Shown here piece by piece: positions 1 to 16,843 of a DNA stretch of 64,000 nt. The stretch is from Bacteroidetes bacterium MED-G17 (lineage in GTDB: Bacteria; Bacteroidota; Bacteroidia; NS11-12g; UBA9320): positions 18,497-82,496 of the forward strand of contig NTKK01000002.1 in assembly GCA_002457675.1 (NCBI GenBank), read 5' to 3'. The notes beneath the pieces were generated by a model. That model did no database searches and had not been told where the DNA came from. It saw only the letters and a program-made list of their open reading frames with translations. The position numbers were made by a program, and so were the translations under genes. Position 1 is the stretch's first letter, and each line of letters opens with the position of its first letter.

Positions 1-311
1 AAAAAGGTATGTCATTTCATAGCTCTGTGGCTTCTGCTAAAGGCGCGGTTGAAGGCTTAGTAAGATCTTTAGCGGCAGAATGGGCGCCAAAATACAGAGT
101 AAACTGTATTGCACCATCGCTCACTGACACGCCTCTGGCAGAAAGATTGTTGCGCAATGACAAAATGCGAGAAGCTGCAAAAGACCGACATCCCTTGAAG
201 CGTATCGGAAGCGCAGAAGATATAGCAAGTGCCACCCATTTTTTGTTATCCAATAAAAGTAAATTTATTACTGGACAAATTATAGGAATCGACGGTGGGT
301 TGTCTGGTTAA
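1..311 (+). CDS. SDR family oxidoreductase, 3' part (truncated by window start)
   Basis: SDR C-terminal motifs RVNCIAPSLTDT, HPLKRIG, ITGQIIGIDGG; frame open to the window edge. Confidence 0.9.
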   Translation, partial: KGMSFHSSVASAKGAVEGLVRSLAAEWAPKYRVNCIAPSLTDTPLAERLLRNDKMREAAKDRHPLKRIGSAEDIASATHFLLSNKSKFITGQIIGIDGGLSG

Positions 312-2296
312 TTTACTTTACTACCGTTGGCAACTTTTACACTGGGTTGGTTGAATTGTAATTGACCCGATAAATCCTCTGACATCAAAATCATTCCCTG
401 ACTTTCGAAACCTCTAATTTTTCGTGGTGCCAAGTTACACACAACCGTAACCTGCTGTCCCAAGACGTCATTTGGACTAAAATGATGTGCAATCCCTGAA
501 ATTATTGTTCTTATTTCTCCCCCCATATCTACCTGTAGTGTAAGCAATTTATCCGCTTTTTCCATTTTTTTGGCTTCTATTATCGTGCCAACGCGTAGAT
601 CTATTTTTTCAAAATCATCAAACTGAATTTCTTCTTTATACATAGGTTTATTTTCTTTTTTTGGTAGTAATTTATCGATTTGAATTTGGATTTCGGCATC
701 CTCTATTTTTTCAAATAGCAGCATAGGTTTGTTAAGCTTGTGCTTGGGTGAAAGTACTTCTGCATTTGAAAGATTCAAGGTGTTTTTTATTTTTTCCGCA
801 GTATTGGGGAGAAATATTTGTGCCTGTCTTTTAATTTCTTCAACCAATTTCAGACAGGTAAATAAACAATTACGAACCTGTGGCTTGAGATTTTCCTCCT
901 TCCACTTTTTCCATGGCTCTTGCTCTTGAAGATATTTGTTGCCCAATCTTGCTAAATCTATAAAAAACGTATTTGCTTGTCTAAATTCAAAATTTGATAG
1001 CGCAAAGTCTATTTTTTGAGCTAAATCTTGCACCTTACTTTCAACAGTTATATCCATTTGACCTTGAGCCACATAACCTTCAAAATATTTATGGCTTAAA
1101 ACCAAAACACGGTTAATGAAATTTCCTAAAATAGCCACCAACTCGTTATTTACCCTAGCTTGAAAATCTTTCCATGTAAAATCTGCATCGTTATTTTCGG
1201 GCATTATTGAAGTTAATACATATCTTAACTCATCAACTTTATGTGGGAAATCTTTGAGGTAGTCATTTACCCAAATTGCATGATTTCTTGAGGTGGAAAT
1301 TTTTTTTCCTTCTAAGTTTAAAAATTCATTGGCAGGAACATATTTAGGCAAAATAAAATCACCGTGTGCATGCAACATTGCTGGAAAAATGAGGCAGTGA
1401 AAAACAATATTGTCTTTCCCGATAAAATGGATTAATTCAGTCTTTTCGTCTTGCCAATACTCCGTCCACTTTTCTGTTAATTCCTCTGTCATAGAAATAT
1501 AGCCGATTGGGGCATCAAACCAAACATAAAGAACTTTGCCGTCGGCGCCTTCAACGGGAACTTTAATACCCCAATTTAAGTCCCTGGTCATGGCTCGTGG
1601 TTTTAATCCTTCGTTGAGCCAACTTTTACACTGTCCATATACATGGGGTTTTAAACTTGTGCGAAGACCTTCTATATAGGAATCCAAAAAAGAGCTTTGC
1701 AATTTATCCAAAGGTAAATACCAGTTTTTTGTTTTTTTAAGGATTGGTGGACGCCCACTTAAGGCTGATTTTGGATTAATTAATTCTAATGGACTAAGTG
1801 ATTTACCACAAGATTCACACTGGTCACCATACGCATTTTCATAACTACAATTTGGACACCGTCCGGTGATGTATCTATCCGCCAAAAATTGCTGAGTTGA
1901 TTGATCATAATATTGTTCACTTTCATGTTCTTCAAAAACACCATTGTCGTATAATTTTTTGAAAAAGGATTGAGATCTACGATGATGGGTATCAGAGCTT
2001 GTTCTTGAAAAAACATCAAAATTTATCTTTAGTCCTTCAAAAGATTTTTTGATGTTTTCGTGGTAAAAGTCAACCACTTCTTTTGGAGACTTTCCCTCTT
2101 TTTTTGCTCTAATAGTAATAGGAACTCCATGCTCATCTGTGCCACATATAAATTTTACATCTAGATTTTTTTTGTGCCTTAAGAAGCGCACGTATAAATC
2201 AGCGGGTAAATAAGCCCCAGCAATATGACCAATATGCAAAGGCCCATTAGCATAAGGAAGTGCTGAGGTTACTATGTATTTATGGGTATTGGTCAT
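308..2296 (-). CDS. metG: methionine--tRNA ligase
   Basis: ALPYANGPLHIGH (HIGH), zinc knuckle CPNC..CESC, KISTS (KMSKS-like), C-terminal tRNA-binding OB domain. Confidence 0.98.
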   Translation of the reverse strand: MTNTHKYIVTSALPYANGPLHIGHIAGAYLPADLYVRFLRHKKNLDVKFICGTDEHGVPITIRAKKEGKSPKEVVDFYHENIKKSFEGLKINFDVFSRTSSDTHHRRSQSFFKKLYDNGVFEEHESEQYYDQSTQQFLADRYITGRCPNCSYENAYGDQCESCGKSLSPLELINPKSALSGRPPILKKTKNWYLPLDKLQSSFLDSYIEGLRTSLKPHVYGQCKSWLNEGLKPRAMTRDLNWGIKVPVEGADGKVLYVWFDAPIGYISMTEELTEKWTEYWQDEKTELIHFIGKDNIVFHCLIFPAMLHAHGDFILPKYVPANEFLNLEGKKISTSRNHAIWVNDYLKDFPHKVDELRYVLTSIMPENNDADFTWKDFQARVNNELVAILGNFINRVLVLSHKYFEGYVAQGQMDITVESKVQDLAQKIDFALSNFEFRQANTFFIDLARLGNKYLQEQEPWKKWKEENLKPQVRNCLFTCLKLVEEIKRQAQIFLPNTAEKIKNTLNLSNAEVLSPKHKLNKPMLLFEKIEDAEIQIQIDKLLPKKENKPMYKEEIQFDDFEKIDLRVGTIIEAKKMEKADKLLTLQVDMGGEIRTIISGIAHHFSPNDVLGQQVTVVCNLAPRKIRGFESQGMILMSEDLSGQLQFNQPSVKVANGSKVN

Positions 2297-4456: not shown

Positions 4457-5398
4457 ATGCGAGTATGCCTTTTAATCATTCATTTAGTTTTCCTAAATTC
4501 TATTCTTTTTGGACAAACCAGATTTGAGGTCAGTATAAAACGAACTTCCTTTGAGTTGGTAGAAAATGATACCGTAAATATTTCCAGTGATGATGCCGAA
4601 CAAGAAAACCAAACAATGGATAAACTGTATGATGATGACCTGGACGCAGGTTGGGAAGGCGATGATTTTAATACCCTATTTGTTGGCTTAAGATTTACAA
4701 ATGTTCAAATACCTCAAGGCGCAATTGTTGATTCAGCCTATCTAGAAGTTTACTCTCATGAAGAAGAAAACGATCAAGCCTTAATTACTATCATCGGTGA
4801 AGCAACGGATAACGCTGAAACTTTTGATTTGGATAACCTTATTACTGATAGAAAACAAACGAATGATTCAGTGCTCTGGAACGTAAACGAAAAATGGACG
4901 ATCTGGACAAAATACAAATCAGCTGATTTTGCACAAGTCATTCAAGAAATTGTCGATAGAAGTGGATGGAAATCTGGAAATGCCCTTGCAATTTTTTTAA
5001 AGGGTTCTGACCAAGGCGCAAGCAATGAAGACAATGCACGAGATATGGAATCTTTCGAAAATGAAGAAGATCCAGCAGATGGTGGTGATGGAAAAAATCA
5101 TCCTGAAAGAGCACCTAAATTAGTGGTTGTTTACAGCGGAGCAGCATCCACAAGCAATATAGATATTTCACAAAATGTTGAAATTATTCCAAACCCTGCA
5201 AATGATTTTATTCAAATAAATATAGGAAAAAACCAAGAGTTTTACGTCTCAATAGTTGACCTAAATGGTAAAAAGATATATGAAAGAAATGTAAGGTCTA
5301 ATGAATATATCAATCTTTCCGAATTACCTAAGGGATCATACCTTATTCAAGGCACTCTAGAAATGGGGTCATTCAGCAAAAAATTATTGCTTAAATAA
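4457..5398 (+). CDS. T9SS type-A secreted protein with one acidic predicted beta-sandwich domain
   Basis: Signal peptide; domain with GLRFTNVQIPQGA..SAYL and IQEIVDRSGWKSGNA motifs; CTD IIPNPANDFIQI..LPKGSYLI..KKLLLK. Confidence 0.85.
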   Translation: MRVCLLIIHLVFLNSILFGQTRFEVSIKRTSFELVENDTVNISSDDAEQENQTMDKLYDDDLDAGWEGDDFNTLFVGLRFTNVQIPQGAIVDSAYLEVYSHEEENDQALITIIGEATDNAETFDLDNLITDRKQTNDSVLWNVNEKWTIWTKYKSADFAQVIQEIVDRSGWKSGNALAIFLKGSDQGASNEDNARDMESFENEEDPADGGDGKNHPERAPKLVVVYSGAASTSNIDISQNVEIIPNPANDFIQINIGKNQEFYVSIVDLNGKKIYERNVRSNEYINLSELPKGSYLIQGTLEMGSFSKKLLLK

Positions 5399-8277
5399 TG
5401 CTCGGAAACTTTTTCCAAGATAAAAAAGAAGTCAAATTCATCTTATTGAATTTGGCTTTTTTGTTTCATATACAGGGATACGGTCAAAACTTTATTTCAG
5501 GGACCATAAAAGACGCTGAAACACAAAACATACTTGTTGGAGCTGACATACGTCAAATTGAAGGTAAAACAATTGCAATCAGTAATGAAAACGGTGAGTT
5601 TAAACTAAAGTTATCCGATAAGTCTCCAGTGGTTATCAATTATATTGGCTACAAAAGCGACACACTTAGAAATTTTTCTACATTAAGCGTTGAAATCTTC
5701 CTTACACCCTCGTCAAAAGGATTAGATGCATTTACAGTAAATAGTAGATTTAGCCTCCAGCAAATTGGGTTAAGAAATCAAAAGGAATCTAAAAATATTA
5801 AAAATATCATCAGCGCAGATCAAATAAAATTATTTCCCGACATGAATGCAGCTGAAGCTGTGGCTCGTGTTCCCGGAATTACCTTGCAAAGAGATCAAGG
5901 CGAGGGTCGTTTTGTTCAATTACGTGGAACTGCGCCTTGGTTAAGTACATTAAATATCAATGGAGAACAAGTGCCAAGCCCGGAAGGAGATGTACGTTAT
6001 GTTGGCCTTGATGTTATTGCTGCTGACCAAATAGAGTTTGTTGAGATTACAAAAGCGCTAACACCTGATATGGATGGAGACGCAATTGCAGGAAATGTGA
6101 ATATCATTACTAAAAGAGCCCGAAATACTGAACCCACGTTAAATATGGCTTTTTCAGGAGGCTATAACAACATAAGTAAACAACCCAATTTAATGGCAAG
6201 TGTTTCGTTCGGTCAAAGAATTAAAAAGCTTGGCTTTCACCTCAATGCAAATCATCAAATAAATAATCAGGGAGCTCATAATATAGAATATAAATTTGTA
6301 CAGAGACCCACTCAAGAAGATACTAGCTTTAATCCCGTTTACTCTGATATCCAGTTTAGGCACTATAGCATAACAAGAAAAAGGACTGGTATAACCGCTA
6401 CAATGGACTACAGCTTTTCCAAAAATTCCTTCATTATTTTACGAGGAATGTTTAACAATTTTTCGGACAACGAAATTCGCAGCAGAGTAAGACATAAATT
6501 GGGCAGTGGAACTATAATAAATAAGTACTATGCTAAAGAAGCCAAAATAGAAAGAGATCTTAAAATGAGAACCAAACAGCAACAAATTGCGTCCTTGAAT
6601 CTAAATGGATCAAACTATATAAATAAAGCTAAATTAGAATATGGACTCGCCATTTCAAACGCCTTCGAACATACTCCTGACCGTTTTGAAATGGTTTTTG
6701 AAAGTGACGAACTTGACATACAGTTGGATTTATCAGAGCCTAACTTTCCAAGGATTTCATATCCCTTAGAAAGAGATATAAGTAATGCTTTTGATTTTGA
6801 GAATTACACTTTTGAAGAAATGGAACTACGAAACGACTTGGTTGAAGACCTCAACAAAACTGCGAGATTGGATTTAAGTATTCCTCTAAAAAATCCTAAA
6901 AACTACCTAAAAGTTGGGGGGAAATGGAGAAATAAAACCCGAGAAAGAAACAATATTGGAGTAACCTACAATAAATACTATGGCATCTTTTTACCAGGCT
7001 CAAGACAAATTTATCTTCAAGAAGGACCAGATTTAAATTTAGCTCTTTTGGCTGAAGATTTAAAAGTTAATAACCTTTTAAATCGTGGCTATGAACTTGG
7101 TCCAACTCCAGATCCTCAGCTTAGCAAGGACTTCTATGAATATTATCAACAACATTTTAAAATTGACGAAGACCAAAGCAAGCAGAAATCTTTTAATTCA
7201 GATTATCAAGCTAAAGAAAATATCTATGCTGCGTATGCAATGGGTGAATATAATTTGGGTAAATTAAGTATTGTAGGTGGTTTGAGGTATGAGCTTACGG
7301 AAATTGAACACAAGGGAAATGTTTTAAAACTTGAAAAAGGCAGGTTCTTCAGAGATTTATTTGAAGAACAAAAAAACTATTCGCGAAGTTTTCTTTTGCC
7401 ACAAATACACCTTACCTATCGGCCAGATAGAAATACCAACATAAGATTTGCGGCAACCACTTCTTACTCTCGTCCGAATTTTGAAGACAATTTGCCTTAT
7501 AGAGAAGAAGAGAATGAAGACGAAGTTACTTATGGAAACCCCCTACTAAATTACCCTAAATCCTTCAATCTTGACTTTATGCTTGAAAAATACTTATCAA
7601 ACAATGGTCTTTTATCTGGAGGTTTGTTCTACAAAAGAATTGATGATTTTATATTTTTCTATAAGCGATTTGCGCATGAAGATTCTAATTTTAGTACTGC
7701 AGGCCTTAACGAAATAACTATGGCCAATAATGGTCTTTTTGCAAACGTTATGGGAATAGAACTTACAGCGAATATCAAATTTTCTAAGCTACCCAAAAAT
7801 TGGCGATATCTTGGGATTTTATCAAATTACACCTTTACACTATCCGAAGCTTTTATAAATCAAAGATTACCAATTGAAAGATTAGACCAAGTATTCATCT
7901 ATGGTACGGATGGCAAAGGTTTTCTTTTGAATAATAAGCAGCGAGAAAAAATAACACTACCCGGACAATCTCCTCACACAGCTAATTTTTCACTTTTTTA
8001 TGACCATCCAAAATTTTATGCGAAACTTTCAGCAAACTTTCAAGATCGGTTCTTAAATGAACTTGGGGCAGAAAAAGAACTTGATGTATTTTACGATAGG
8101 CAATTTCACCTAGATTTTCTGGCAGACTATGTTCTAAATCCCAAAATCAAATGTTTTATTCAAATTAACAATATCACCAACCAGCCACTAAGGTATTACT
8201 TAGGAAATCCTTCGTTAACGAAGCAATATGAGTTTTACTCATGGTGGGGAAGAATTGGTTTAAAAGCAAACTTTTAG
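5398..8277 (+). CDS. TonB-dependent receptor (phytase-associated type)
   Basis: N-terminal carboxypeptidase-regulatory-like domain, plug FPDMNAAEAVARVPG..DQGEGRFV.LRG, barrel ending in terminal Phe; TAATG coupling to the upstream gene. Confidence 0.93.
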   Translation: MLGNFFQDKKEVKFILLNLAFLFHIQGYGQNFISGTIKDAETQNILVGADIRQIEGKTIAISNENGEFKLKLSDKSPVVINYIGYKSDTLRNFSTLSVEIFLTPSSKGLDAFTVNSRFSLQQIGLRNQKESKNIKNIISADQIKLFPDMNAAEAVARVPGITLQRDQGEGRFVQLRGTAPWLSTLNINGEQVPSPEGDVRYVGLDVIAADQIEFVEITKALTPDMDGDAIAGNVNIITKRARNTEPTLNMAFSGGYNNISKQPNLMASVSFGQRIKKLGFHLNANHQINNQGAHNIEYKFVQRPTQEDTSFNPVYSDIQFRHYSITRKRTGITATMDYSFSKNSFIILRGMFNNFSDNEIRSRVRHKLGSGTIINKYYAKEAKIERDLKMRTKQQQIASLNLNGSNYINKAKLEYGLAISNAFEHTPDRFEMVFESDELDIQLDLSEPNFPRISYPLERDISNAFDFENYTFEEMELRNDLVEDLNKTARLDLSIPLKNPKNYLKVGGKWRNKTRERNNIGVTYNKYYGIFLPGSRQIYLQEGPDLNLALLAEDLKVNNLLNRGYELGPTPDPQLSKDFYEYYQQHFKIDEDQSKQKSFNSDYQAKENIYAAYAMGEYNLGKLSIVGGLRYELTEIEHKGNVLKLEKGRFFRDLFEEQKNYSRSFLLPQIHLTYRPDRNTNIRFAATTSYSRPNFEDNLPYREEENEDEVTYGNPLLNYPKSFNLDFMLEKYLSNNGLLSGGLFYKRIDDFIFFYKRFAHEDSNFSTAGLNEITMANNGLFANVMGIELTANIKFSKLPKNWRYLGILSNYTFTLSEAFINQRLPIERLDQVFIYGTDGKGFLLNNKQREKITLPGQSPHTANFSLFYDHPKFYAKLSANFQDRFLNELGAEKELDVFYDRQFHLDFLADYVLNPKIKCFIQINNITNQPLRYYLGNPSLTKQYEFYSWWGRIGLKANF

Positions 8278-8279
8278 AT

Positions 8280-9254
8280 ATGAAGCTTGGCATTTTAGGT
8301 TTTTTGATTGGTCTTTTTTCAATCCAGACAAAAATAAAACCAGACGTAATCACTCAAAAAGTGCGTTATGATAGCGACGATCCAGCAATTTGGTATAACA
8401 CAAAAAATCCCAACAACAGTGTAATTTTCGGAACGGATAAAGATACAGATGGCTCAGTTTTAGCCTTTGATTTAAATGGAAAAATTATCGACTCGCTTTG
8501 CATCTTTGGGCTTAGAAGACCCAACAACATAGATATTCAACAAAACTTTAGTTATAACGGAAAACAACATTCAATTTTAGCACTTACTGAGAGGGAACTA
8601 AAACAAATTCGATTATTTTCTATTCCAGATATGCATGAAATTGGAAATGGTTTTAAGGTCTTTAAACATGATACATTTCCACGTTTTGACCTGCCGATGG
8701 GAATTACCTTAGGCGCTAAAAATCAAAAGTTGCTAATTTTTATCAGCAGAAAAGAAGGACCATCAAAAGGTTATATTCATCAATATTCCTTTGACCCAGC
8801 CAATGCAAGTTTGAATCTGACAAAAACACTAGGAAATTTTGATGGTAAAAATGAAATTGAAGCTTTGTGTTTAGACGACGACGAAAATATCTTGTATTAC
8901 AGCGACGAAGGATTTGGCGTTCACGCACTGAATTTAACAACCGAACATGATACTGTTTTTGGAGGAACTCAATTTGGAGAAGACCATGAAGGTATCGCCT
9001 TGATTAAAAATGACTCGCTTAACTTGGTTGTTGTTTCGGACCAAAAAAATGGTGAACTAGAACTCTTTGACGCTTCCAACAACTATATACATGTTGCAAG
9101 TGTAAAAATGAGTGCCAAAGAAACGGATGGAATTGAAATACTCAACTATCCAATAAAAATGTTTCCAAAGGGTTTATTAGTAATCATGTCAGATAACCGA
9201 ACTTTTCAATACTATTCTTTAAATAAACTAATTAATTCCTTAACAAATAATTAA
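8280..9254 (+). CDS. beta-propeller phytase (3-phytase, PhyC-like)
   Basis: SDDPAIW, GTDK, RPNNID, EIEAL..DD, DHEGIAL, VSDQ, ETDG motifs. Confidence 0.88.
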   Translation: MKLGILGFLIGLFSIQTKIKPDVITQKVRYDSDDPAIWYNTKNPNNSVIFGTDKDTDGSVLAFDLNGKIIDSLCIFGLRRPNNIDIQQNFSYNGKQHSILALTERELKQIRLFSIPDMHEIGNGFKVFKHDTFPRFDLPMGITLGAKNQKLLIFISRKEGPSKGYIHQYSFDPANASLNLTKTLGNFDGKNEIEALCLDDDENILYYSDEGFGVHALNLTTEHDTVFGGTQFGEDHEGIALIKNDSLNLVVVSDQKNGELELFDASNNYIHVASVKMSAKETDGIEILNYPIKMFPKGLLVIMSDNRTFQYYSLNKLINSLTNN

Positions 9255-9255
9255 C
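9240..9255 (+). promoter_or_regulatory. TTAAC-N6-TTAAC direct repeat, candidate OmpR/PhoB-family box
   Basis: 11-bp-periodic repeat about 50 nt upstream of the 9307 gene in a phosphorus-scavenging locus. Confidence 0.3.
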
Positions 9256-9306
9256 TTACTGCGAAAGGCAATACGTTTTCTTTGTTTCACTATAATTAAA
9301 AAAAAT

Positions 9307-12300
9307 ATGTTTAGAAATTACAAAATTCTTTTGATGCTTTTTGTGCTTTTCTTTTTTACAAGAAATAGCACAGCTCAGCTAAAAATGGAAAAATTAGGAA
9401 CTTTCACTGCGGATGCAGATTTCGCTGAAAGTGGATCGGAAATCATTGCTTTTGACGAAACTAGTAACAGAGTTTTTTCGACCAATGGCTTTCAAAACCG
9501 AATTGATATTATTGACGCAAGTGACCCAACCAATCCCACATTTGTCAACTCGATAGATGTTTCACTAATTGGTGACGGTGTACAAAGTGTTGCTGTAAGT
9601 GGAGGCATTGTAGCTGTTGCTATTTCTAATGCCGATGGTATGCAGAATGGTTTTGTAGGATTTTTCGATACAGACGGAATATTCAAGTCTTCAGTAGAAG
9701 TTGGGGTGCTTCCTGACGCGGTAACTTTTTCCCCAGATGGAAACACTGTCATCACATCGAACGAAGGAGAGCCAAGCGATGATTATTTACAAGATCCAAA
9801 AGGATCTATTTCTATTATTGATGTTTCTGTGGGTATTGATGCAATCTCTCAAGCGAATGTTACAACGCTTAGTTTTGATGAATACAACAATAACTACGAC
9901 AGAAATATCAGAGTCTTTGGGGTGACACAACCTTTTTTAACAGAATTCCTAGACACTACCCTAGAAGCCAACGGTGTAAAAACTTACAACAATGCTTCTG
10001 ACAAAGACTGGAGATTGTCTTCTAGAGATGGAATATTTTACGCGGAGATAAATGGATTTCGCGGAGATGTAGCCTCGAATGACTGGTTGGTTGTTGATTC
10101 ATTAGATCTTGCGACTAGTGGACACGAGCATGCCTACCTCAGCTTTTTGAATGAAAGAAGATTCAATGGAAACGGAATGGAAGTTTTAGCTTCCACGGAC
10201 TTTGCAGGCGATGTGAATACAGCCACTTGGGTTAATATTGAAGACAATAAGTCCATAAGTATGATGCTTAGTGCTGCCTCTGATGATACCGAAGAATACG
10301 TAGATGGACCAAATCAAACGGAAACTGTCGGTTCTAATGATTTTGGAAGTTCAGATCTTGAATTTAACTCTGAAAGAGACGGTATGACTAGACCTCAAGC
10401 GGTCGCAGTTAGATTTGATAATGTTCAAATTCAAAAGGGTGCAACTGTTAAAAATGCTTACGTACAATTTACAGTTGATGAAGCCGCAAAAAATGATGGA
10501 GAATGTTCTGTAGATATTTTGGTAGAAGCTAATGAAAATGCATCCACATTTGACGGAACTGATTCTTTAGTTGCTAATAGAACGAAGATGAAAAATCCGA
10601 ACGCCAGTGATTTAATTATCTCTGAAGTAGCTGAAGGTTCTTCGTATAACAAGTACATGGAAATTTATAACGGAACAGGTTCTGCAATTGATCTTTCCGA
10701 CTATGCCTTAGCAAATGTTGGTAATGCTCCAAGGAGAGAAGGTGAACATGAATTTTGGAGAGATTTCGATTCAGGTGCCGTAATACCTGCGGGTGGAACA
10801 TATATTATTGCCGATGATAGAGCAGACTCAGCATCAATTGTGAGCAAGGCAGATGAATTCCACAACTTTTTAAGCAATGGTGATGACGGTTATTGCTTGG
10901 TTAAAGGAAACAATTGGTATGGGCCAACTGGAAAATGGAAACCTGTTTCCATAGCAGTAGGCCCGGGAAGAGGAAGAGCAGATTATTTTGCTTTCAACTA
11001 TATCACCAATGCAGCAAGAAATTCTGTAGATGATGACAGGATTGTTTTTAATCTCGACGGAACCTTCGAAAATGAATTTGGAGCAGATGGAAGAACCTGG
11101 ATAGAGAATTGGTTTGATGGTGCAGGTGATAGAGACGCTGAGCCTTCAACGCCATTTAATAATCCAGCAGGTTCAAGATGGCAAAAGATAGGAACAGACA
11201 CTATAAGAATCATAGGTGCGGGATCGTATATAGGCCTACAAAAAACTGTCAATGGTGGCGAATTTGGAAATGATGTGGCATGGACTGGAGTCGCTAGAGA
11301 TACATTAGAATATCTAATATCATCTGAAAATCCTTCTATTACTGAAACGCTAGTACATTTTGATATTCAAGTAGGAGGTGGAAACTGGTGGAGATTTACC
11401 TACAGTGATGAGGGACAAGATATTTATTTCCCATATGCTAAGGTTGACTGTGTAGGTGATTTTATGGGTGATCCTGGTTCTGGATGGGACGTTGCAGGTG
11501 TTAACAATGGTACAAAAGATCACACCCTAATAAGAAAGTCTTCTGTAGCTGATGGAAACGGCGGAAATTGGACCGCTAGTGCTGGAACAAGTGCTGAAAA
11601 CTCTGAGTGGATTGTAAAAGATAAGGATGACTGGAATGATATTGCAAAGCACGCCACTGACATTGGAAAAGATATGTCTGTTCGTTGGACTATTGCAGCA
11701 AATACTTGGCAAACAGCAGACGAATCTGGTGCCGATCAACAAACCGTAGATATTTCTAAATTGGTTCAATCTGTAATTGATATGCCAGATTGGGAAGCTG
11801 GAAATGCAATCGCATTATACTTCATGCCTGCCGGAATTGACCAAGGTATAAGAGTTGCTAAATCAGCTGATGATGCTCCAGATGAAGCAGCAGAATTACA
11901 CCTAGAATTTGACGGTGGTGTAATCAACTGGTCTGATAACAACGAATGGCAATGGACAGAGTCAGGTTATATCGATATCTCAGAACACATTTCTGACAAT
12001 ACTGCTATAGCTTTTCACTACACAGGTGGAAATGGTCAAGGCGACGGATCCGGTTCGTGGTACAGAATTTCTGATATTGAAATCGCTCAGCAAGATTTGG
12101 CAAATGATTTAGAGCCAGAATACTCTGTTGTTGGTTCAGACAATAATACTGTCTACACCGTTGCTCAAGAAAATAATGCAATGATTGTTAGTACAATCAA
12201 CCCTCCTGCCATTTATGGAATCTATCCATTAGGCACCAAAGACCACAGCGCACCAGGAAACGGTTTAGACCCAACGAATGACGACGGTGGAATCAATATT

Positions 12301-13386
12301 GGCAACTTCCCCCTAAATGGAATGTATATGCCAGATGGTATGGCAGTTGCGAACATTGGAGGAAATGATTATGTATTCACTGCCAATGAGGGCGATGCTA
12401 GAGAATATGAAGATCTTCCTGGATTAATCGAAGAGGTTGATTTAATTGATGGAGGTAACGGTCTTGTGGGACAAGGATTCATGGATATGGATGACAATGA
12501 TACAGCTGACGATGGAACTGAAGACTGGTATACACAATGGGGTGGAGATGATAAATTAAATGACATGTCTTACCCAGTTGCGTTCAATGCGCACACAAAT
12601 GGTGTTACAGCAGAAGTAAATCTATATGGAGATACAGACGGTGATGGTCTAATCGAAGAATTGCACAGTTATGGTGCCAGATCATTTACCATATGGGATA
12701 ATAGATTGGCCGTAATTTATGACAGTAAAGATGAGTTTGAGCAAAACATTGCCAAAGAACACCCAGATAACTTCGGAAATGACAATGATGAGCAAGATTT
12801 TGAAGGTAGAAGTGACAACAAAGGCCCAGAACCAGAATCAGTAGCCGTTGGACAACTCGGAGATAAATACTTCGCATTCATAGGCCTAGAAAGAGCTGGA
12901 GGAATAATGGTATATGACGTTACTGACCCTGCTAATTCAAAATATGTTATGTATGAGTTGAACAGAGATGTAACCTTACCAATTGAAGAGCAAGGTGATC
13001 TTGGTCCAGAAGATGTAAAGTTTGTTTCAGCTGAAAATAGCCCTAACGGAAAAGCTATGGTTATTGTATCAAATGAAGTAAGTAATACGGTTACATTCTA
13101 TAATGTTGAATATTTAACTGGAAACATTGAAGACATCAACGATAAAGATGTTGTTAAAATTGCTCCAAACCCTTCCAACGGATTAGTTAATCTATATGTG
13201 CACAATGCAATTAAAGAAAACTACAATGTAGAAGTTTACAACCTAGTTGGAACTGTTGTTTACAGTGAAAGTAATTTACGTGGTGGAGTGACCGCCCTAG
13301 ACCTAAACCATCTTGACAAAGGTGTTTATATCATCTCTGTAGGAAACAACAAAGTTTCTAGCAAACAAAGAGTTGTATTGAAATAG
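9307..13386 (+). CDS. T9SS type-A secreted choice-of-anchor I (alkaline-phosphatase-related) protein with nested inserted domains
   Basis: Signal peptide; LPDAVTFSPDG..NEGEPS..DPKGSISIID, DLEPEY, QENNA, MYMPDG, TANEGDAR, GARSFTIW, RSDNKGPEPE, GLERAGG, DLGPE, SNEVS; CTD IAPNPSNG..GVYII. Confidence 0.9.
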   Translation: MFRNYKILLMLFVLFFFTRNSTAQLKMEKLGTFTADADFAESGSEIIAFDETSNRVFSTNGFQNRIDIIDASDPTNPTFVNSIDVSLIGDGVQSVAVSGGIVAVAISNADGMQNGFVGFFDTDGIFKSSVEVGVLPDAVTFSPDGNTVITSNEGEPSDDYLQDPKGSISIIDVSVGIDAISQANVTTLSFDEYNNNYDRNIRVFGVTQPFLTEFLDTTLEANGVKTYNNASDKDWRLSSRDGIFYAEINGFRGDVASNDWLVVDSLDLATSGHEHAYLSFLNERRFNGNGMEVLASTDFAGDVNTATWVNIEDNKSISMMLSAASDDTEEYVDGPNQTETVGSNDFGSSDLEFNSERDGMTRPQAVAVRFDNVQIQKGATVKNAYVQFTVDEAAKNDGECSVDILVEANENASTFDGTDSLVANRTKMKNPNASDLIISEVAEGSSYNKYMEIYNGTGSAIDLSDYALANVGNAPRREGEHEFWRDFDSGAVIPAGGTYIIADDRADSASIVSKADEFHNFLSNGDDGYCLVKGNNWYGPTGKWKPVSIAVGPGRGRADYFAFNYITNAARNSVDDDRIVFNLDGTFENEFGADGRTWIENWFDGAGDRDAEPSTPFNNPAGSRWQKIGTDTIRIIGAGSYIGLQKTVNGGEFGNDVAWTGVARDTLEYLISSENPSITETLVHFDIQVGGGNWWRFTYSDEGQDIYFPYAKVDCVGDFMGDPGSGWDVAGVNNGTKDHTLIRKSSVADGNGGNWTASAGTSAENSEWIVKDKDDWNDIAKHATDIGKDMSVRWTIAANTWQTADESGADQQTVDISKLVQSVIDMPDWEAGNAIALYFMPAGIDQGIRVAKSADDAPDEAAELHLEFDGGVINWSDNNEWQWTESGYIDISEHISDNTAIAFHYTGGNGQGDGSGSWYRISDIEIAQQDLANDLEPEYSVVGSDNNTVYTVAQENNAMIVSTINPPAIYGIYPLGTKDHSAPGNGLDPTNDDGGINIGNFPLNGMYMPDGMAVANIGGNDYVFTANEGDAREYEDLPGLIEEVDLIDGGNGLVGQGFMDMDDNDTADDGTEDWYTQWGGDDKLNDMSYPVAFNAHTNGVTAEVNLYGDTDGDGLIEELHSYGARSFTIWDNRLAVIYDSKDEFEQNIAKEHPDNFGNDNDEQDFEGRSDNKGPEPESVAVGQLGDKYFAFIGLERAGGIMVYDVTDPANSKYVMYELNRDVTLPIEEQGDLGPEDVKFVSAENSPNGKAMVIVSNEVSNTVTFYNVEYLTGNIEDINDKDVVKIAPNPSNGLVNLYVHNAIKENYNVEVYNLVGTVVYSESNLRGGVTALDLNHLDKGVYIISVGNNKVSSKQRVVLK

Positions 13387-13406
13387 GTTTTATAAAAATA
13401 ATCATT

Positions 13407-13438
13407 AAAAAAGGCCCATCTGTTGATGGGCCTTTTTT
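13407..13438. terminator. bidirectional intrinsic terminator
   Basis: AAAAAAGGCCCATC-TGTT-GATGGGCCTTTTTT between the convergent 9307 gene and tRNA-Pro. Confidence 0.9.
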
Positions 13439-13450
13439 GTTTTTAGCTTG

Positions 13451-13525
13451 TCGGGATGAGTGGATTCGAACCACCGATCTCACGCCCCCCAGACGTGCAC
13501 TTTAACCGGACTAAGCTACATCCCG
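13451..13525 (-). tRNA. tRNA-Pro(GGG)
   Basis: Reverse complement CGGGATG-TAGCTTAG..CACGT-CT-GGG-GG-GCGTG..GGTTCGAATCC-ACTCATCCCG-A forms a cloverleaf; CCA not encoded. Confidence 0.96.
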
Positions 13526-13538
13526 ATGTGATGCGAAC

Positions 13539-14768
13539 TTATACCAAATTGCTTAGGGTCATTTCGAGTGCTTTACTCGAAATACCCGTATTTTTTGGAT
13601 TAAATTGATGAACCCGCATCAAGGTTCTTCTCATCAGTTCACTTGTGTCTTTAAAGATGGTAACATCCTCTACATTATTTCCTACTTGGTGTAAATAGGC
13701 AAATGTTCTCGCCATGCCTGAATTTGCTATAAAATCTGGGATTACCGCTATATTCTCATCCGCGAATTGAGCGATAGGACCCATAAAAATTTCTTTATCT
13801 GCAAAAGGGACATTGGCACCATTTGAAATTACCTCTATACCTGAGTCGATCAGTTGCTCTACATGTCCGCGAGATATCAATCTAGAAGCTGCACCAGGAA
13901 TAAATATTTCCGCACTCAAATTCCAAATTTTTTCATCTACTTCTTGAAATGACAGCATTTTAGGATGATTGAGTTTATTGCCTTTTCGATTGATAAATAA
14001 GTCTTTTACTTCTGACAAACTCAGACCCTCTTCTTTTATCAAACCATTTTCTTTATCTATAATTCCAGTTATAAGCGCTCCATGCTTAGCAAGATAAAAT
14101 GCTGCTGCAGCTGCAACATTTCCCCAACCTTGAATAATGGCCCTCCTTCCCTGCAATCTTCCTCCCCAAATTTCATAGTAATGACGAACGCACTCTGCGA
14201 CACCAAATCCAGTAATCATGTCACTAATCGTATAGGCCTTTTCCACGTCTGGACTAAATCTTTCGTCTGTTATGCTTAAAGAAACGCCATCTTGGAGTTG
14301 CTGAATAGCTTGCATTTTTTCCTGTTCGGAATATCTTTCGAAATGGCCGTTGACTGTTCCCTCTTGCGGATGCAATAAACCTAGGTCTGCGGTATAAGGA
14401 ATGACTTCATGAATTTCATCAACATTCATATCTCCCCCAGTTCCATAATACATTTTCAAAAGCGGATAAACCGCCTTATACCATCTTCTAAGCACCCCTT
14501 CTTTCCTTGGATCATTGGGATCAAAATTGATTCCTGACTTAGCTCCTCCAATATCTGGACCACTTACAGCGAATTTTACTTCCATGGTTTTTGCCAAAGA
14601 CTCCACCTCTCTCATGTTCAAACCTTTTCTCATGCGCGTACCACCACCAGCTGAACCATTTCTTAACGAATTGATTACCAACCAACCTTCAGCTTCGGTT
14701 TCAGTGTCTGACCATTCAAATACGATTTCTGGTCTTTTCTCTTCAAATTGTTGAAGTAATTTGAGCAT
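13539..14768 (-). CDS. Glu/Leu/Phe/Val amino-acid dehydrogenase family protein
   Basis: GGGTR, IGGAKSG, Rossmann QGWGNVA, GANVPF, PDFIANSG. Confidence 0.9.
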   Translation of the reverse strand: MLKLLQQFEEKRPEIVFEWSDTETEAEGWLVINSLRNGSAGGGTRMRKGLNMREVESLAKTMEVKFAVSGPDIGGAKSGINFDPNDPRKEGVLRRWYKAVYPLLKMYYGTGGDMNVDEIHEVIPYTADLGLLHPQEGTVNGHFERYSEQEKMQAIQQLQDGVSLSITDERFSPDVEKAYTISDMITGFGVAECVRHYYEIWGGRLQGRRAIIQGWGNVAAAAAFYLAKHGALITGIIDKENGLIKEEGLSLSEVKDLFINRKGNKLNHPKMLSFQEVDEKIWNLSAEIFIPGAASRLISRGHVEQLIDSGIEVISNGANVPFADKEIFMGPIAQFADENIAVIPDFIANSGMARTFAYLHQVGNNVEDVTIFKDTSELMRRTLMRVHQFNPKNTGISSKALEMTLSNLV

Positions 14769-14770
14769 AC

Positions 14771-15862
14771 CTATAAGAGGTCAGAGAAGTTTCCATGTAG
14801 TGATCCCGCGAGGACATCATCATCAGCACCCGTAACTGATTTATAAATATTGTCAATATTTTTTACCCTCAAAATACCTAGAAGAGCAAAAATTAATGCT
14901 TCTTTATATTTTACTAGCATATCGTCAGGAATTACAATTTCAACATCTGTATGGGTTTTTATATGATCAATTAATGTTTTGTTGTGAACACCCCCACCTG
15001 TGGCGAGTACGCGCTTTACGCTTCCTTCCCCACCTGTTAAATCTTCAATGTTATTGCCAATTTGTGAACCAACGTGGTCGCAAAGGGTTTTCATTTTGTC
15101 CTCTTTACTAATGCCACTTTCTCTAACGTTAAACCAAAACTGATCGTTTATCCATTCTCTTCCTAATGTTTTAGAACCACTTTGATGATAATACTCAATT
15201 TTATTCAACTTATCCAATAATTGGTAGTCGATTTTCCCTGATTCAGCAATGGTCCCGTTCTCGTCATAGTCTTTGCCAAACTCTCGTGCAATACGATTGA
15301 ATAAAATATTTGCAGGGCAAATGTCAAATCCAATTCTTGCTCCGTTTTGATTTGAGGAAATATTGGCAAAACCACCAATATTAAGACATACATCATACTC
15401 TGAAAAAAGAAGCTCATCTCCAACGGCACTAAGAGGTGCGCCATGTCCACCAAAAATTACATCCATGGCTCTAAAGTTGGTTACCGATGGAATACCTGTC
15501 ATAGCCGTAATGGAATTCCCATCACCAATTTGCACCGAAAGATTATTGTGTGGTTGGTGAAAAATAGTATGCCCGTGCGAAGCAATTAAATCCGCATCTA
15601 AACTATTTTCATCAAGAAAATCGGCTATACACTCGCCAATATACTGACCGAAAAACCTATCTGTTTTATAAAAAATCAATGATGATTGATTTCTTAATTT
15701 GGAAAGTCGCAATCGCCATTTGTCGCCATAGGGTATTGTTTTGGCGTGGTTGATCTTATAATCCCATTTTTTGTCTTCCCTTTCACTTAATGTGAAATGT
15801 GCTATGTCTAAACCGTCCATTGAAGTTCCAGACATTACACCAATTATATTATATGAACGCAT
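14771..15862 (-). CDS. anmK: anhydro-N-acetylmuramic acid kinase
   Basis: IGVMSGTSMDGLD, IASHGHTIFHQP, GGHGAPL, NIGGFANI, TGGGVHN, KEALIFA. Confidence 0.95.
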   Translation of the reverse strand: MRSYNIIGVMSGTSMDGLDIAHFTLSEREDKKWDYKINHAKTIPYGDKWRLRLSKLRNQSSLIFYKTDRFFGQYIGECIADFLDENSLDADLIASHGHTIFHQPHNNLSVQIGDGNSITAMTGIPSVTNFRAMDVIFGGHGAPLSAVGDELLFSEYDVCLNIGGFANISSNQNGARIGFDICPANILFNRIAREFGKDYDENGTIAESGKIDYQLLDKLNKIEYYHQSGSKTLGREWINDQFWFNVRESGISKEDKMKTLCDHVGSQIGNNIEDLTGGEGSVKRVLATGGGVHNKTLIDHIKTHTDVEIVIPDDMLVKYKEALIFALLGILRVKNIDNIYKSVTGADDDVLAGSLHGNFSDLL

Positions 15863-15905
15863 AATTATTTAAATTGAATATGTAACTAAAAATTTAGCAG
15901 GGGTG

Positions 15906-15913
15906 CAAATTTA
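15906..15913 (-). promoter_or_regulatory. sigma-A -7 element TAAATTTG upstream of anmK
   Basis: TAnnTTTG match in the divergent intergenic region. Confidence 0.55.
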
Positions 15914-15976
15914 CGTTTTTGTGGTGCTTCATACAATCATTTTATAATAAGGCCTTATTTTGCAATCATATCTTTG

Positions 15977-16843
15977 ATGAAAGTAGCTGGAGTAACATTC
16001 ATTCGCAATGCAGAAAAATTTGCCTATCCAATTAAAGAAGCTATATTATCAATTTTACCGATTTGTGATGAATTGGTCGTTGCTGTTGGCAAGTCAGAAG
16101 ACAAAACGCTAGAAATAATTCAACATATAGATAGCGACAAAATCCAAATAATTCAAACAGTTTGGGATGACAACATAAGAACTGGCGGGCAGGTTCTAGC
16201 GATAGAAACCAACAAAGCCTTAGATGCTGTTTCAAATGATATAGATTGGTGTTTCTATATCCAAGCTGACGAGGCTATTCATGAAAAATATCTTTCCAAT
16301 GTTCGAAAAGCAATGCAAGACAATCTTAACAACAAAAACATTGATGGCTTGCTTTTTCATTACAAACACTTTTGGGGAAATTATGACTACATTGGAAACT
16401 CTAGAAAATGGTACAGAAAAGAAGTTCGCATTATAAGAAACAATAAAAAAATTAGATCTTACAAAGACGCCCAAGGTTTTAGAAAAAATAATCTAAAACT
16501 AAACGTAAAGCAAGTGGATGCATATATCTACCATTATGGCTGGGTAAGGCCACCTGAAAAACTTCAACTTAAAAATTTGGAGGCCAATAAACTTTGGCAT
16601 TCCGACGATTGGATAAGTAAAAATGTACCCAAGGGTTCTGAATTTGATTTTTCAAATATTGATTCTTTAGAAAAATTTGATGGTACACACCCGGAAGCAA
16701 TGGCAAAACTGATATCAACAATCAATTGGCATTTTAATCCCCCTCCGAACCGGTTGGGAACTAAAGAAAGAATTTCAAGATGGATAGAAAAACTTACTAA
16801 TTATCGCTTGGGAGAATACAAAAACTACAATTTGAGTAAATAA
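15977..16843 (+). CDS. glycosyltransferase family 2
   Basis: FIRNA..YPI.EAI.SILP, YIQADE, IYHYGWVRPP. Confidence 0.88.
   Translation: MKVAGVTFIRNAEKFAYPIKEAILSILPICDELVVAVGKSEDKTLEIIQHIDSDKIQIIQTVWDDNIRTGGQVLAIETNKALDAVSNDIDWCFYIQADEAIHEKYLSNVRKAMQDNLNNKNIDGLLFHYKHFWGNYDYIGNSRKWYRKEVRIIRNNKKIRSYKDAQGFRKNNLKLNVKQVDAYIYHYGWVRPPEKLQLKNLEANKLWHSDDWISKNVPKGSEFDFSNIDSLEKFDGTHPEAMAKLISTINWHFNPPPNRLGTKERISRWIEKLTNYRLGEYKNYNLSK

Follow-up and report, generated by a model that had tools for sequence, protein, structure and literature searches.

Bacteroidetes bacterium MED-G17 encodes a secreted protein in which five domains are nested one inside another, each of the outer four being interrupted by the next. 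The gene lies in a stretch of 64,000 nucleotides (the window; GenBank assembly GCA_002457675.1, contig NTKK01000002.1, positions 18,497 to 82,496), where an open reading frame (ORF) at positions 9307–13386 of the forward strand encodes 1,359 amino acids (protein P0001), as described in an earlier note made from the sequence alone. The source genome is a draft of 17 contigs (1.67 Mb; completeness, 99%). The architecture can be written A[B[C[D[E]]]], with approximately 720 residues sitting in a loop of domain A between the motifs IRVFG and DLEPEY, and it is almost certainly real. The A-B-C-D-E-D′-C′-B′-A′ order proposed in the note was recovered through two-piece profile matches with adjoining coordinates and borders within about 7 residues of those first read, and the identities given there to A, B and D (choice-of-anchor I, DUF5017/choice-of-anchor-J-type and lamin tail) were right.

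All parts of the nest lie on the forward strand. The outermost domain, a choice-of-anchor I propeller with seven predicted blades, begins with A1 (positions 9376–9921; residues 24–205, ending in IRVFG) and is completed by A2 (12085–13146; residues 927–1280, beginning AQQDLANDLEPEY). Within it, a jelly roll of the DUF5017/choice-of-anchor-J type consists of an N-terminal two thirds (B1, 9922–10251; residues 206–315) and a C-terminal third (B2, 11932–12081; residues 876–925). These enclose the N-terminal (C1, 10252–10593; residues 316–429) and C-terminal (C2, 11674–11910; residues 790–868) parts of an unnamed beta-sandwich that resembles a carbohydrate-binding module (CBM), which in turn enclose the two parts of a lamin-tail domain (LTD; D1, 10597–10911, residues 431–535; D2, 11434–11652, residues 710–782). 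The innermost domain, E (10912–11433; residues 536–709), is contiguous and is predicted to be a lipocalin-like beta-barrel without a named family. On the basis of the borders of custom profiles, the linkers between domains are 0–7 residues long. It follows from this topology that the chain holds each inner domain by both of its ends, as the note had stated.

The split of A is clear from curated profiles. NF038117 scored 432.8 bits (cut-off, 300) in two stretches, the larger of which (residues 927–1257) corresponds to profile positions 167–458, and PF22494 scored 323.8 bits (cut-off, 32; E-value 2.7e-96) in three stretches. In a six-frame search of the genome, profile positions 1–167 (C10:27932–28423) and 167–458 (C10:30581–31573) were 719 residues apart and together covered the whole profile. 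A1 is followed directly by A2 in other proteins (P0138, P0163 and P0141), and the motifs that end A1 and start A2 are separated in uninterrupted relatives by a variable stretch of about 10–16 residues, in agreement with the expectation that IRVFG and DLEPEY normally lie close together.

For the inner domains, we built hidden Markov models (HMMs) solely from contiguous natural copies and ran them against P0001. The B model (from P0246, P0150, P0184 and P0187) matched in two pieces, with profile positions 7–114 at residues 212–319 (independent E-value (iE) 1.6e-26) and 116–164 at residues 876–925 (iE 2.5e-12); the C model matched with positions 3–108 at residues 316–429 (iE 2e-29) and 109–182 at residues 790–868 (iE 6.3e-23); and the D model with positions 3–106 at residues 431–535 (iE 3.9e-40) and 110–181 at residues 710–782 (iE 3.7e-32). 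The E model matched as a single piece (positions 8–164 at residues 542–703; iE 4.6e-34). For all four hosts, A to D, the two halves thus adjoin both in homologues and in profile coordinates. B2 directly follows B1 in P0246, P0184, P0150 and P0187, of which P0246 is a genuine DUF5017/choice-of-anchor J protein (E-values 1.9e-37 and 1.6e-48; 129 and 165 bits). Segments matching C1 (residues ~314–428) and C2 (~790–870) follow each other within 3–20 residues in 17 of the 20 mapped proteins, and matches to residues ~433–534 and ~710–783 follow each other within a few residues in all 43 of the first-listed LTD proteins (P0005–P0047). Contiguous tandem copies of E occur in P0197, P0226 and a 625-residue ORF of the same genome that carries a type IX secretion system (T9SS) signal (L002).

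Curated models of the inner domains were less complete. The Pfam LTD model (PF00932) scored 44.1 bits (cut-off, 34.3) and covered residues 431–527 with positions 3–90 of 109, the remainder being supplied by residues 710–782 in the custom D model. PF16409 (DUF5017) reached 18.5 bits on B, below its cut-off of 28.8 (residues 277–324), and NF038128 (choice-of-anchor J) gave no match in the genome, B being both split and divergent. The structure-bearing chain 8jiy (DUF4955) in the PDB nevertheless matched both halves of B, with chain positions 114–158 at residues 275–316 and 166–217 at residues 879–929, and these pieces are adjacent in the 8jiy chain. When the B profile (alignment A7) was searched in six frames against 401 genomes of the phylum, 55 gave matches, and only this genome gave a clearly two-piece one (positions 7–114 at C10:28436–28759 and 115–164 at C10:30425–30577, 555 residues apart); most of the other listed matches were single stretches over almost the full profile, with the remainder partial (for example, G513, positions 17–106). 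The internal control named in the note also stood: the product of a gene at 4457–5398 (forward strand), a T9SS-secreted protein with a single intact C domain identified by Pfam and by its match to the nested protein, aligns through its residues 76–134 with residues 366–427 of P0001 and through 154–196 with residues 812–859. It is also among the contiguous C copies of alignment A10.

C and E belong to no well-described family. E had no Pfam or NCBIfam match, and a protein-atlas lookup returned only unnamed Bacteroidota clusters of low recognition value. Against PDB sequences, the best E-values were 0.22 for the C profile and 0.38 for the E profile. One of seven C copies matched PF24517, a CBM96/DNRLRE-type module, weakly (E-value 0.048), with no PDB profile match. 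Further relatives of these domains are found in other settings. The 625-residue T9SS protein (C11:179725–181599) contains two E domains that are 32–36% identical to the nested one, and a frame of this genome that is cut by a contig end (L004, C11:206442–206663) holds a C2-like segment with a sorting domain. In P0159, an uninterrupted LTD is followed directly in tandem by E (residues 267–629), and D and E therefore keep company outside the nest too. In a genome of the same family (G019, contig C20), a choice-of-anchor I gene without an insert and a gene for three C domains in tandem are some 8 kb apart (5397–6851 and 14401–16155; L048 and L012), a pairing that echoes the C-domain gene at 4457–5398 beside the nested gene.

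We modelled residues 196–940 with AlphaFold2 on a curated alignment (A5) in which the C halves were separate rows. Alignments A2, A3 and A4 were dropped because MAFFT had misplaced fragments of unrelated families, and alignment A8 was not used because the B rows added from the phylum (cut at profile positions 114/115) had been put in LTD columns; the Choice_anch_J domains of relatives, considered as extra B rows, gave no phmmer match to B. The mean predicted local distance difference test score (pLDDT) was 64.2, with values of ~80–95 for D, ~66–87 for E, 50–88 for C and below 50 for B. In this model, the halves of C and the halves of D each complete one fold around their insert. With VIA-align, 168 of the 176 residues of 8wab_B, a chondroitin-sulfate CBM, aligned to C over model positions 117..674, skipping D and E (Z 12.9), and D aligned to lamin immunoglobulin folds over model positions 238..537, skipping E (overall Z 8.4–9.0; 3gef, 3jt0 and 1ifr at Z 8.7–9.0 with 101–107 residues). 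E (model positions 339..508) resembled the barrel of BfSGBP-B (7kv7; Z 11.5, root-mean-square deviation 3.1, 139 residues aligned) and Bacteroides lipocalin-like proteins (Z 8.2–8.7; 4gzv at 8.7). The half-pairing that the note proposed to check by structure prediction was thus seen for C and D, and B remained at low pLDDT; the predicted folds of C and E resemble those of binding modules, as it had suggested. The propeller fold itself was seen in the uninterrupted same-family relative L048 (pLDDT 86.5; predicted template modelling score (pTM) 0.89), which matched seven-bladed propellers at Z 28.5–32 and in which the A1/A2 insertion stretch forms a surface hairpin (residues 188–198; confidence 70–77).

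Could the nest be a chimaera that joins pieces of several genes, or a set of remnants? The source genome is indeed a 17-contig draft, but a metagenome contig of independent origin (L077) aligns collinearly with window positions 6466–15000 at 99.88% identity over 8,535 nucleotides (10 mismatches, no gaps), and 14 DNA sequencing runs from seven studies each contain 0.99 or more of the sampled words. Contigs from four RNA libraries (three studies), with 0–2 differences each, bridge the B1/C1, C1/D1, C2/B2 and B2/A2 junctions, although DNA may be present in these libraries; operon parts that lack such contigs give no evidence of silence. With the scaffold also common to P0003, P0004 and the orthologue in a genome of the same genus (G001), the mis-assembly that the note asked to exclude has a negligible chance of accounting for the protein. 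Loss of folding in B, C and D as a result of the insertions, which would have left broken remnants, is slightly less remote but still very improbable. The failure of curated models to detect or fully score the split B and its pLDDT below 50 would fit such decay, but the custom profiles continue exactly from one half to the next, C and D are each modelled as one fold made up of both halves, and, relative to the G001 orthologue, the nonsynonymous rate (dN) is 0.14–0.17 for both halves of B and of C with a saturated synonymous rate (dS). The corresponding dN/dS ratios are ~0.067 (B) and ~0.060 (C), rough values because dS is saturated, and dS was undefined through saturation for A1, B1, D2 and A2. 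The same five-level architecture is found in P0003, which is 72% identical to P0001. The A[B[C[ ]]] scaffold is kept under purifying selection.

The search for homologues with fewer nesting levels, also proposed in the note, uncovered a natural series comprising uninterrupted A, A[D] and, in the sister species, A[B[C[D]]]. A choice-of-anchor I match was present in 70 of the 191 genomes of the order. Counted from the rows listed, 46 matches run unbroken over the entire profile, and in 13 genomes, all from the family of the window, the match is split at profile positions ~167–175. The gap is 177–198 residues in 11 of these 13 (an LTD insert was verified in four, and the other seven are assigned by gap size alone), 548 residues in G001 and 719 residues in this genome. 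The verified A[D]A′ proteins (L007, L009, L010 and L011), from the same bacterial family, share the host family and insertion site (profile position ~167) with the nested protein; the LTD of L007 is 60–62% identical to LTDs of the nested type, and L010 also has a T9SS tail. Unlike the nested protein, they carry a single-level insert of 177–198 residues without B, C or E. The A[B[C[D]]] form, without E, is found in G001 and P0004. The nest is rare: the B1–C1 junction occurs in only three 90%-identity clusters among 5.8 billion proteins (a word search with 4 matches among 1,105 candidates, restricted to proteins of 747–2,379 residues), and a metagenome scan with a B1–C1 probe gave one locus from 368 pattern matches. 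Labels reading 'C1–D1' in retrieved proteins proved to be phmmer alignment overhangs, as the C model finds nothing there.

The innermost part of the nest varies far more than its mount. Between P0003 on the one hand and P0004 and G001 on the other, A and B are 99–100% identical and C 92–97%, but D1 is only 41–42% and D2 60–63% identical. In the alignment of P0003 with P0004, 273 of the 283 differing columns fall within residues 415–800 and 10 outside, which indicates that D, with or without E, and its short linkers have been swapped as a cassette between near-identical scaffolds, as judged by sequence comparison. E is the fastest-evolving part, with 35% identity between P0001 and P0003 against 74–89% for the scaffold. 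In a tree of LTDs (midpoint root, no supports printed), the E-bearing LTDs adjoin those of the A[D]A′ proteins of the family, and the plain LTDs of P0004 and G001 are far off. This placement points to replacement rather than simple loss of E, as a lead and not as proof of direction.

Two further observations concern the cassette borders. The G001 orthologue (L030, G001:C8) carries a perfect 19-residue tandem duplication exactly at the LTD/C2 junction, which could be a recombination or slippage scar. Two sequencing runs, each from a different study, gave RNA-library contigs that start at 10907/10908, next to the D1/E border, with variant letters at 11014–11015; this may be a break caused by strain variation at the cassette.

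Insertion is also seen elsewhere in these families. A second site in the propeller (profile positions ~191–227) holds ~1,227 residues in G099 (C2:152917–158103), and at this site P0184 and P0150 carry a contiguous B together with a Phytase-like PF13449 region, their N termini bearing tandem C domains; P0258 is also listed among the second-site proteins. In the tandem-LTD proteins P0035 (residues 1305–1555) and P0121 (residues 1618–1870), an insert of ~70 residues sits at the loop that bears E in the nest (HMM position ~107), and the LTD loop has therefore received inserts on more than one occasion.

The nested gene closes a group of four closely spaced genes on the forward strand (4457–13386). 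The C-domain gene comes first and is followed by genes for a TonB-dependent receptor (5398–8277; PF00593, PF07715 and PF13715) and a beta-propeller phytase (8241–9254; PF02333, E-value 6.3e-16), which ends 52 nucleotides upstream of the nested gene. Position 5398 is common to two ORFs, the next two overlap at 8241–8277 and only the 52-nucleotide gap precedes 9307; these overlapping or near-touching ends suggest a single operon. The G001 orthologue, too, has the phytase gene as its upstream neighbour. The nested protein starts with a putative signal peptide (residues 1–23; 9307–9375, forward strand), read by eye as a hydrophobic stretch ending in STAQ, and ends with a T9SS type A sorting domain (13153–13386, forward strand, including the stop codon; PF18962, E-value 5.8e-12; TIGR04183, E-value 2.8e-09), which supplies the C-terminal sorting or anchor signal expected of a choice-of-anchor I protein.

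On the basis of these data, we consider it reasonably likely that P0001 is a real, transcribed surface protein exported by the T9SS, which arose through four successive insertions and serves as a doubly tethered holder of binding modules. In this architecture, a surface hairpin of the choice-of-anchor I (MSP130-type) propeller contains the jelly roll B, a loop of B the CBM-like sandwich C, a loop of C the lamin-tail immunoglobulin domain D and a loop of D the lipocalin-like barrel E. On the cell surface, the nest would display predicted ligand-binding modules, of which E would form the tip; their likeliest ligands may be glycans or other polyanions. The protein would partner the apparently co-transcribed TonB-dependent receptor and phytase in capturing organic-phosphorus-bearing or algal polymeric material. 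We give a binding or capture role about an even chance, and the link to phosphorus acquisition is more tentative. In Flavobacterium johnsoniae, phosphate depletion is reported to cause strong induction of a PF02333 phytase and the adjacent TonB-dependent transporter (PMC8115612). P0138 and P0184 contain fusions of choice-of-anchor I with a 5′-nucleotidase C-terminal domain, and LTDs are said often to occur together with phosphoesterases (PMC6085458, citing Mans et al. 2004).

Several points weigh against this reading. The forms A[B], A[B[C]], B[C] and C[D], which would be intermediates, were absent from 255 retrieved proteins, the 191 genomes of the order and the results of the B1–C1 search (lengths 747–2,379). 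Neither the C nor the E sequence significantly matches a solved or named family, so the binding role is drawn only from fold resemblance, and A resembles generic propellers only. LTDs are reported without a known role, and the LTD is described as dispensable for extracellular DNA degradation by ExeM in vivo (both in excerpts from PMC6085458). The model of the whole insert has a pTM of 0.51 and gives no stalk or tip geometry, and the low pLDDT of B leaves its complementation to the profile matches. Owing to the possible DNA in the RNA libraries, their contigs do not prove transcription, and the saturation of dS bears on the selection estimates.

Two other explanations accept the nest as real. 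It may be a neutral, frozen accident in which permissive loops gathered domains, the modules working as they would in a tandem chain and double tethering or the tip having no special role. The same domains do occur in other arrangements (C-C-C-A in P0138 and P0163, D then E in P0159 and B at another site of A in P0184), the nest is limited to its three clusters, and further proteins have taken up inserts in the A and LTD loops as well. We consider this explanation rather unlikely, because both halves of the scaffold domains are under strong purifying selection, P0001 and P0003 have retained a common architecture although they are only 72% identical, and cassette exchange has occurred precisely at the innermost position. 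Alternatively, the propeller could be a phytase- or phosphatase-like phosphoesterase with the nested modules as its substrate-targeting CBMs. The neighbouring phytase and TonB receptor, the choice-of-anchor I fusions with 5′-nucleotidase C-terminal and Phytase-like PF13449 domains and the reported association of LTDs with phosphoesterases (PMC6085458) would all suit an enzyme. However, no phosphatase or phytase was among the 50 best VIA matches (Z 28.5–32) or the 50 best Foldseek matches of the L048 model, which were mostly WD40-type propellers; A has no sequence match to a solved enzyme; and the bacterial members of the choice-of-anchor I/MSP130 family are reported as unexamined in function (excerpts from PMC11878542). 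An enzymatic propeller is thus improbable, and the 'phosphatase-like head' of the earlier note is unsupported because A matches only generic seven-bladed propellers.

The favoured reading, that of a doubly tethered holder of binding modules, can be extended to a display scaffold. A conserved A[B[C[ ]]] mount, tethered at both ends, would present an exchangeable tip cassette (an LTD, or an LTD with a barrel) that is swapped within species by recombination and diversifies several times faster than the mount. It would give a streamlined marine bacterium variable surface binding on a protease- and shear-resistant support, and the nest would be the deepest of unrelated folds so far described. We regard this extension as speculative and, taken as a whole, doubtful.

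Depth alone does not set the protein apart. In a survey of 2.7 million classified domains, most insertions were single-level, and a six-level recursive nest was reported in SI3 of cyanobacterial RpoC2 (PMC13114784); the four successive insertions found here are therefore no record, and the judgement that such nesting is very unusual was too strong. Both systems show recursive A1-B1-C-B2-A2 nesting from one host loop, with equal or greater depth in SI3. According to excerpts from the same source, SI3 reuses one small domain family (the hybrid motif/HABAS) in an essential cytoplasmic enzyme, whereas the protein described here combines five unrelated folds in a secreted protein with an innermost unit that is swapped between strains. 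Other comparisons concern the parts. Like MSP130/choice-of-anchor I proteins (PMC11878542), P0001 has a predicted seven-bladed propeller, a predicted cell-surface location and a profile score above the curated cut-off, but MSP130 is discussed in animal biocalcification and the excerpts of that paper describe no nested insertion. BfSGBP-B of Bacteroides fluxus (PDB 7kv5–7; PMC7974029), likewise a Bacteroidota surface protein, has a C-terminal beta-barrel that is reported to bind beta-1,3 and mixed-linkage glucan and that the E model resembles, but its identity to E is ~15%, there is no sequence-profile match, and it is a linear PKD-barrel lipoprotein. In ExeM-type LTD nucleases and tandem-LTD proteins (PMC6085458), an LTD is also borne by a secreted protein in the company of phosphoesterases, but those described in the excerpted text are terminal or tandem and uninterrupted, whereas here the LTD is insert and host at once.

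What is new is the nesting of five different folds and the swappable core cassette; the protein is also set apart by its extracellular location and its simpler natural forms. Nested insertion has been described before as a means of building proteins, but it is rare. The graded series (A; A[D]; A[B[C[D]]]; A[B[C[D[E]]]]) and the two alleles that are distinct solely in the core cassette provide a ready test bed for questions about the co-translational folding of discontinuous domains, stabilization of extracellular modules by double tethering and the choice of loops that tolerate grafts in protein engineering. The analysis also brings to notice C and E as unnamed domain families that are widespread among Bacteroidota and, by gene context, ties a choice-of-anchor I protein, from a family so far without known bacterial function, to an operon of the phosphate-scavenging type.

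The base composition of the region is also distinctive, for which amino-acid composition or a foreign origin may be responsible. Window positions 10001–13000 have a GC content of 0.40–0.41 and a GC skew of +0.16 to +0.21, as compared to a GC content of 0.33–0.37 and a skew near zero in the flanks.

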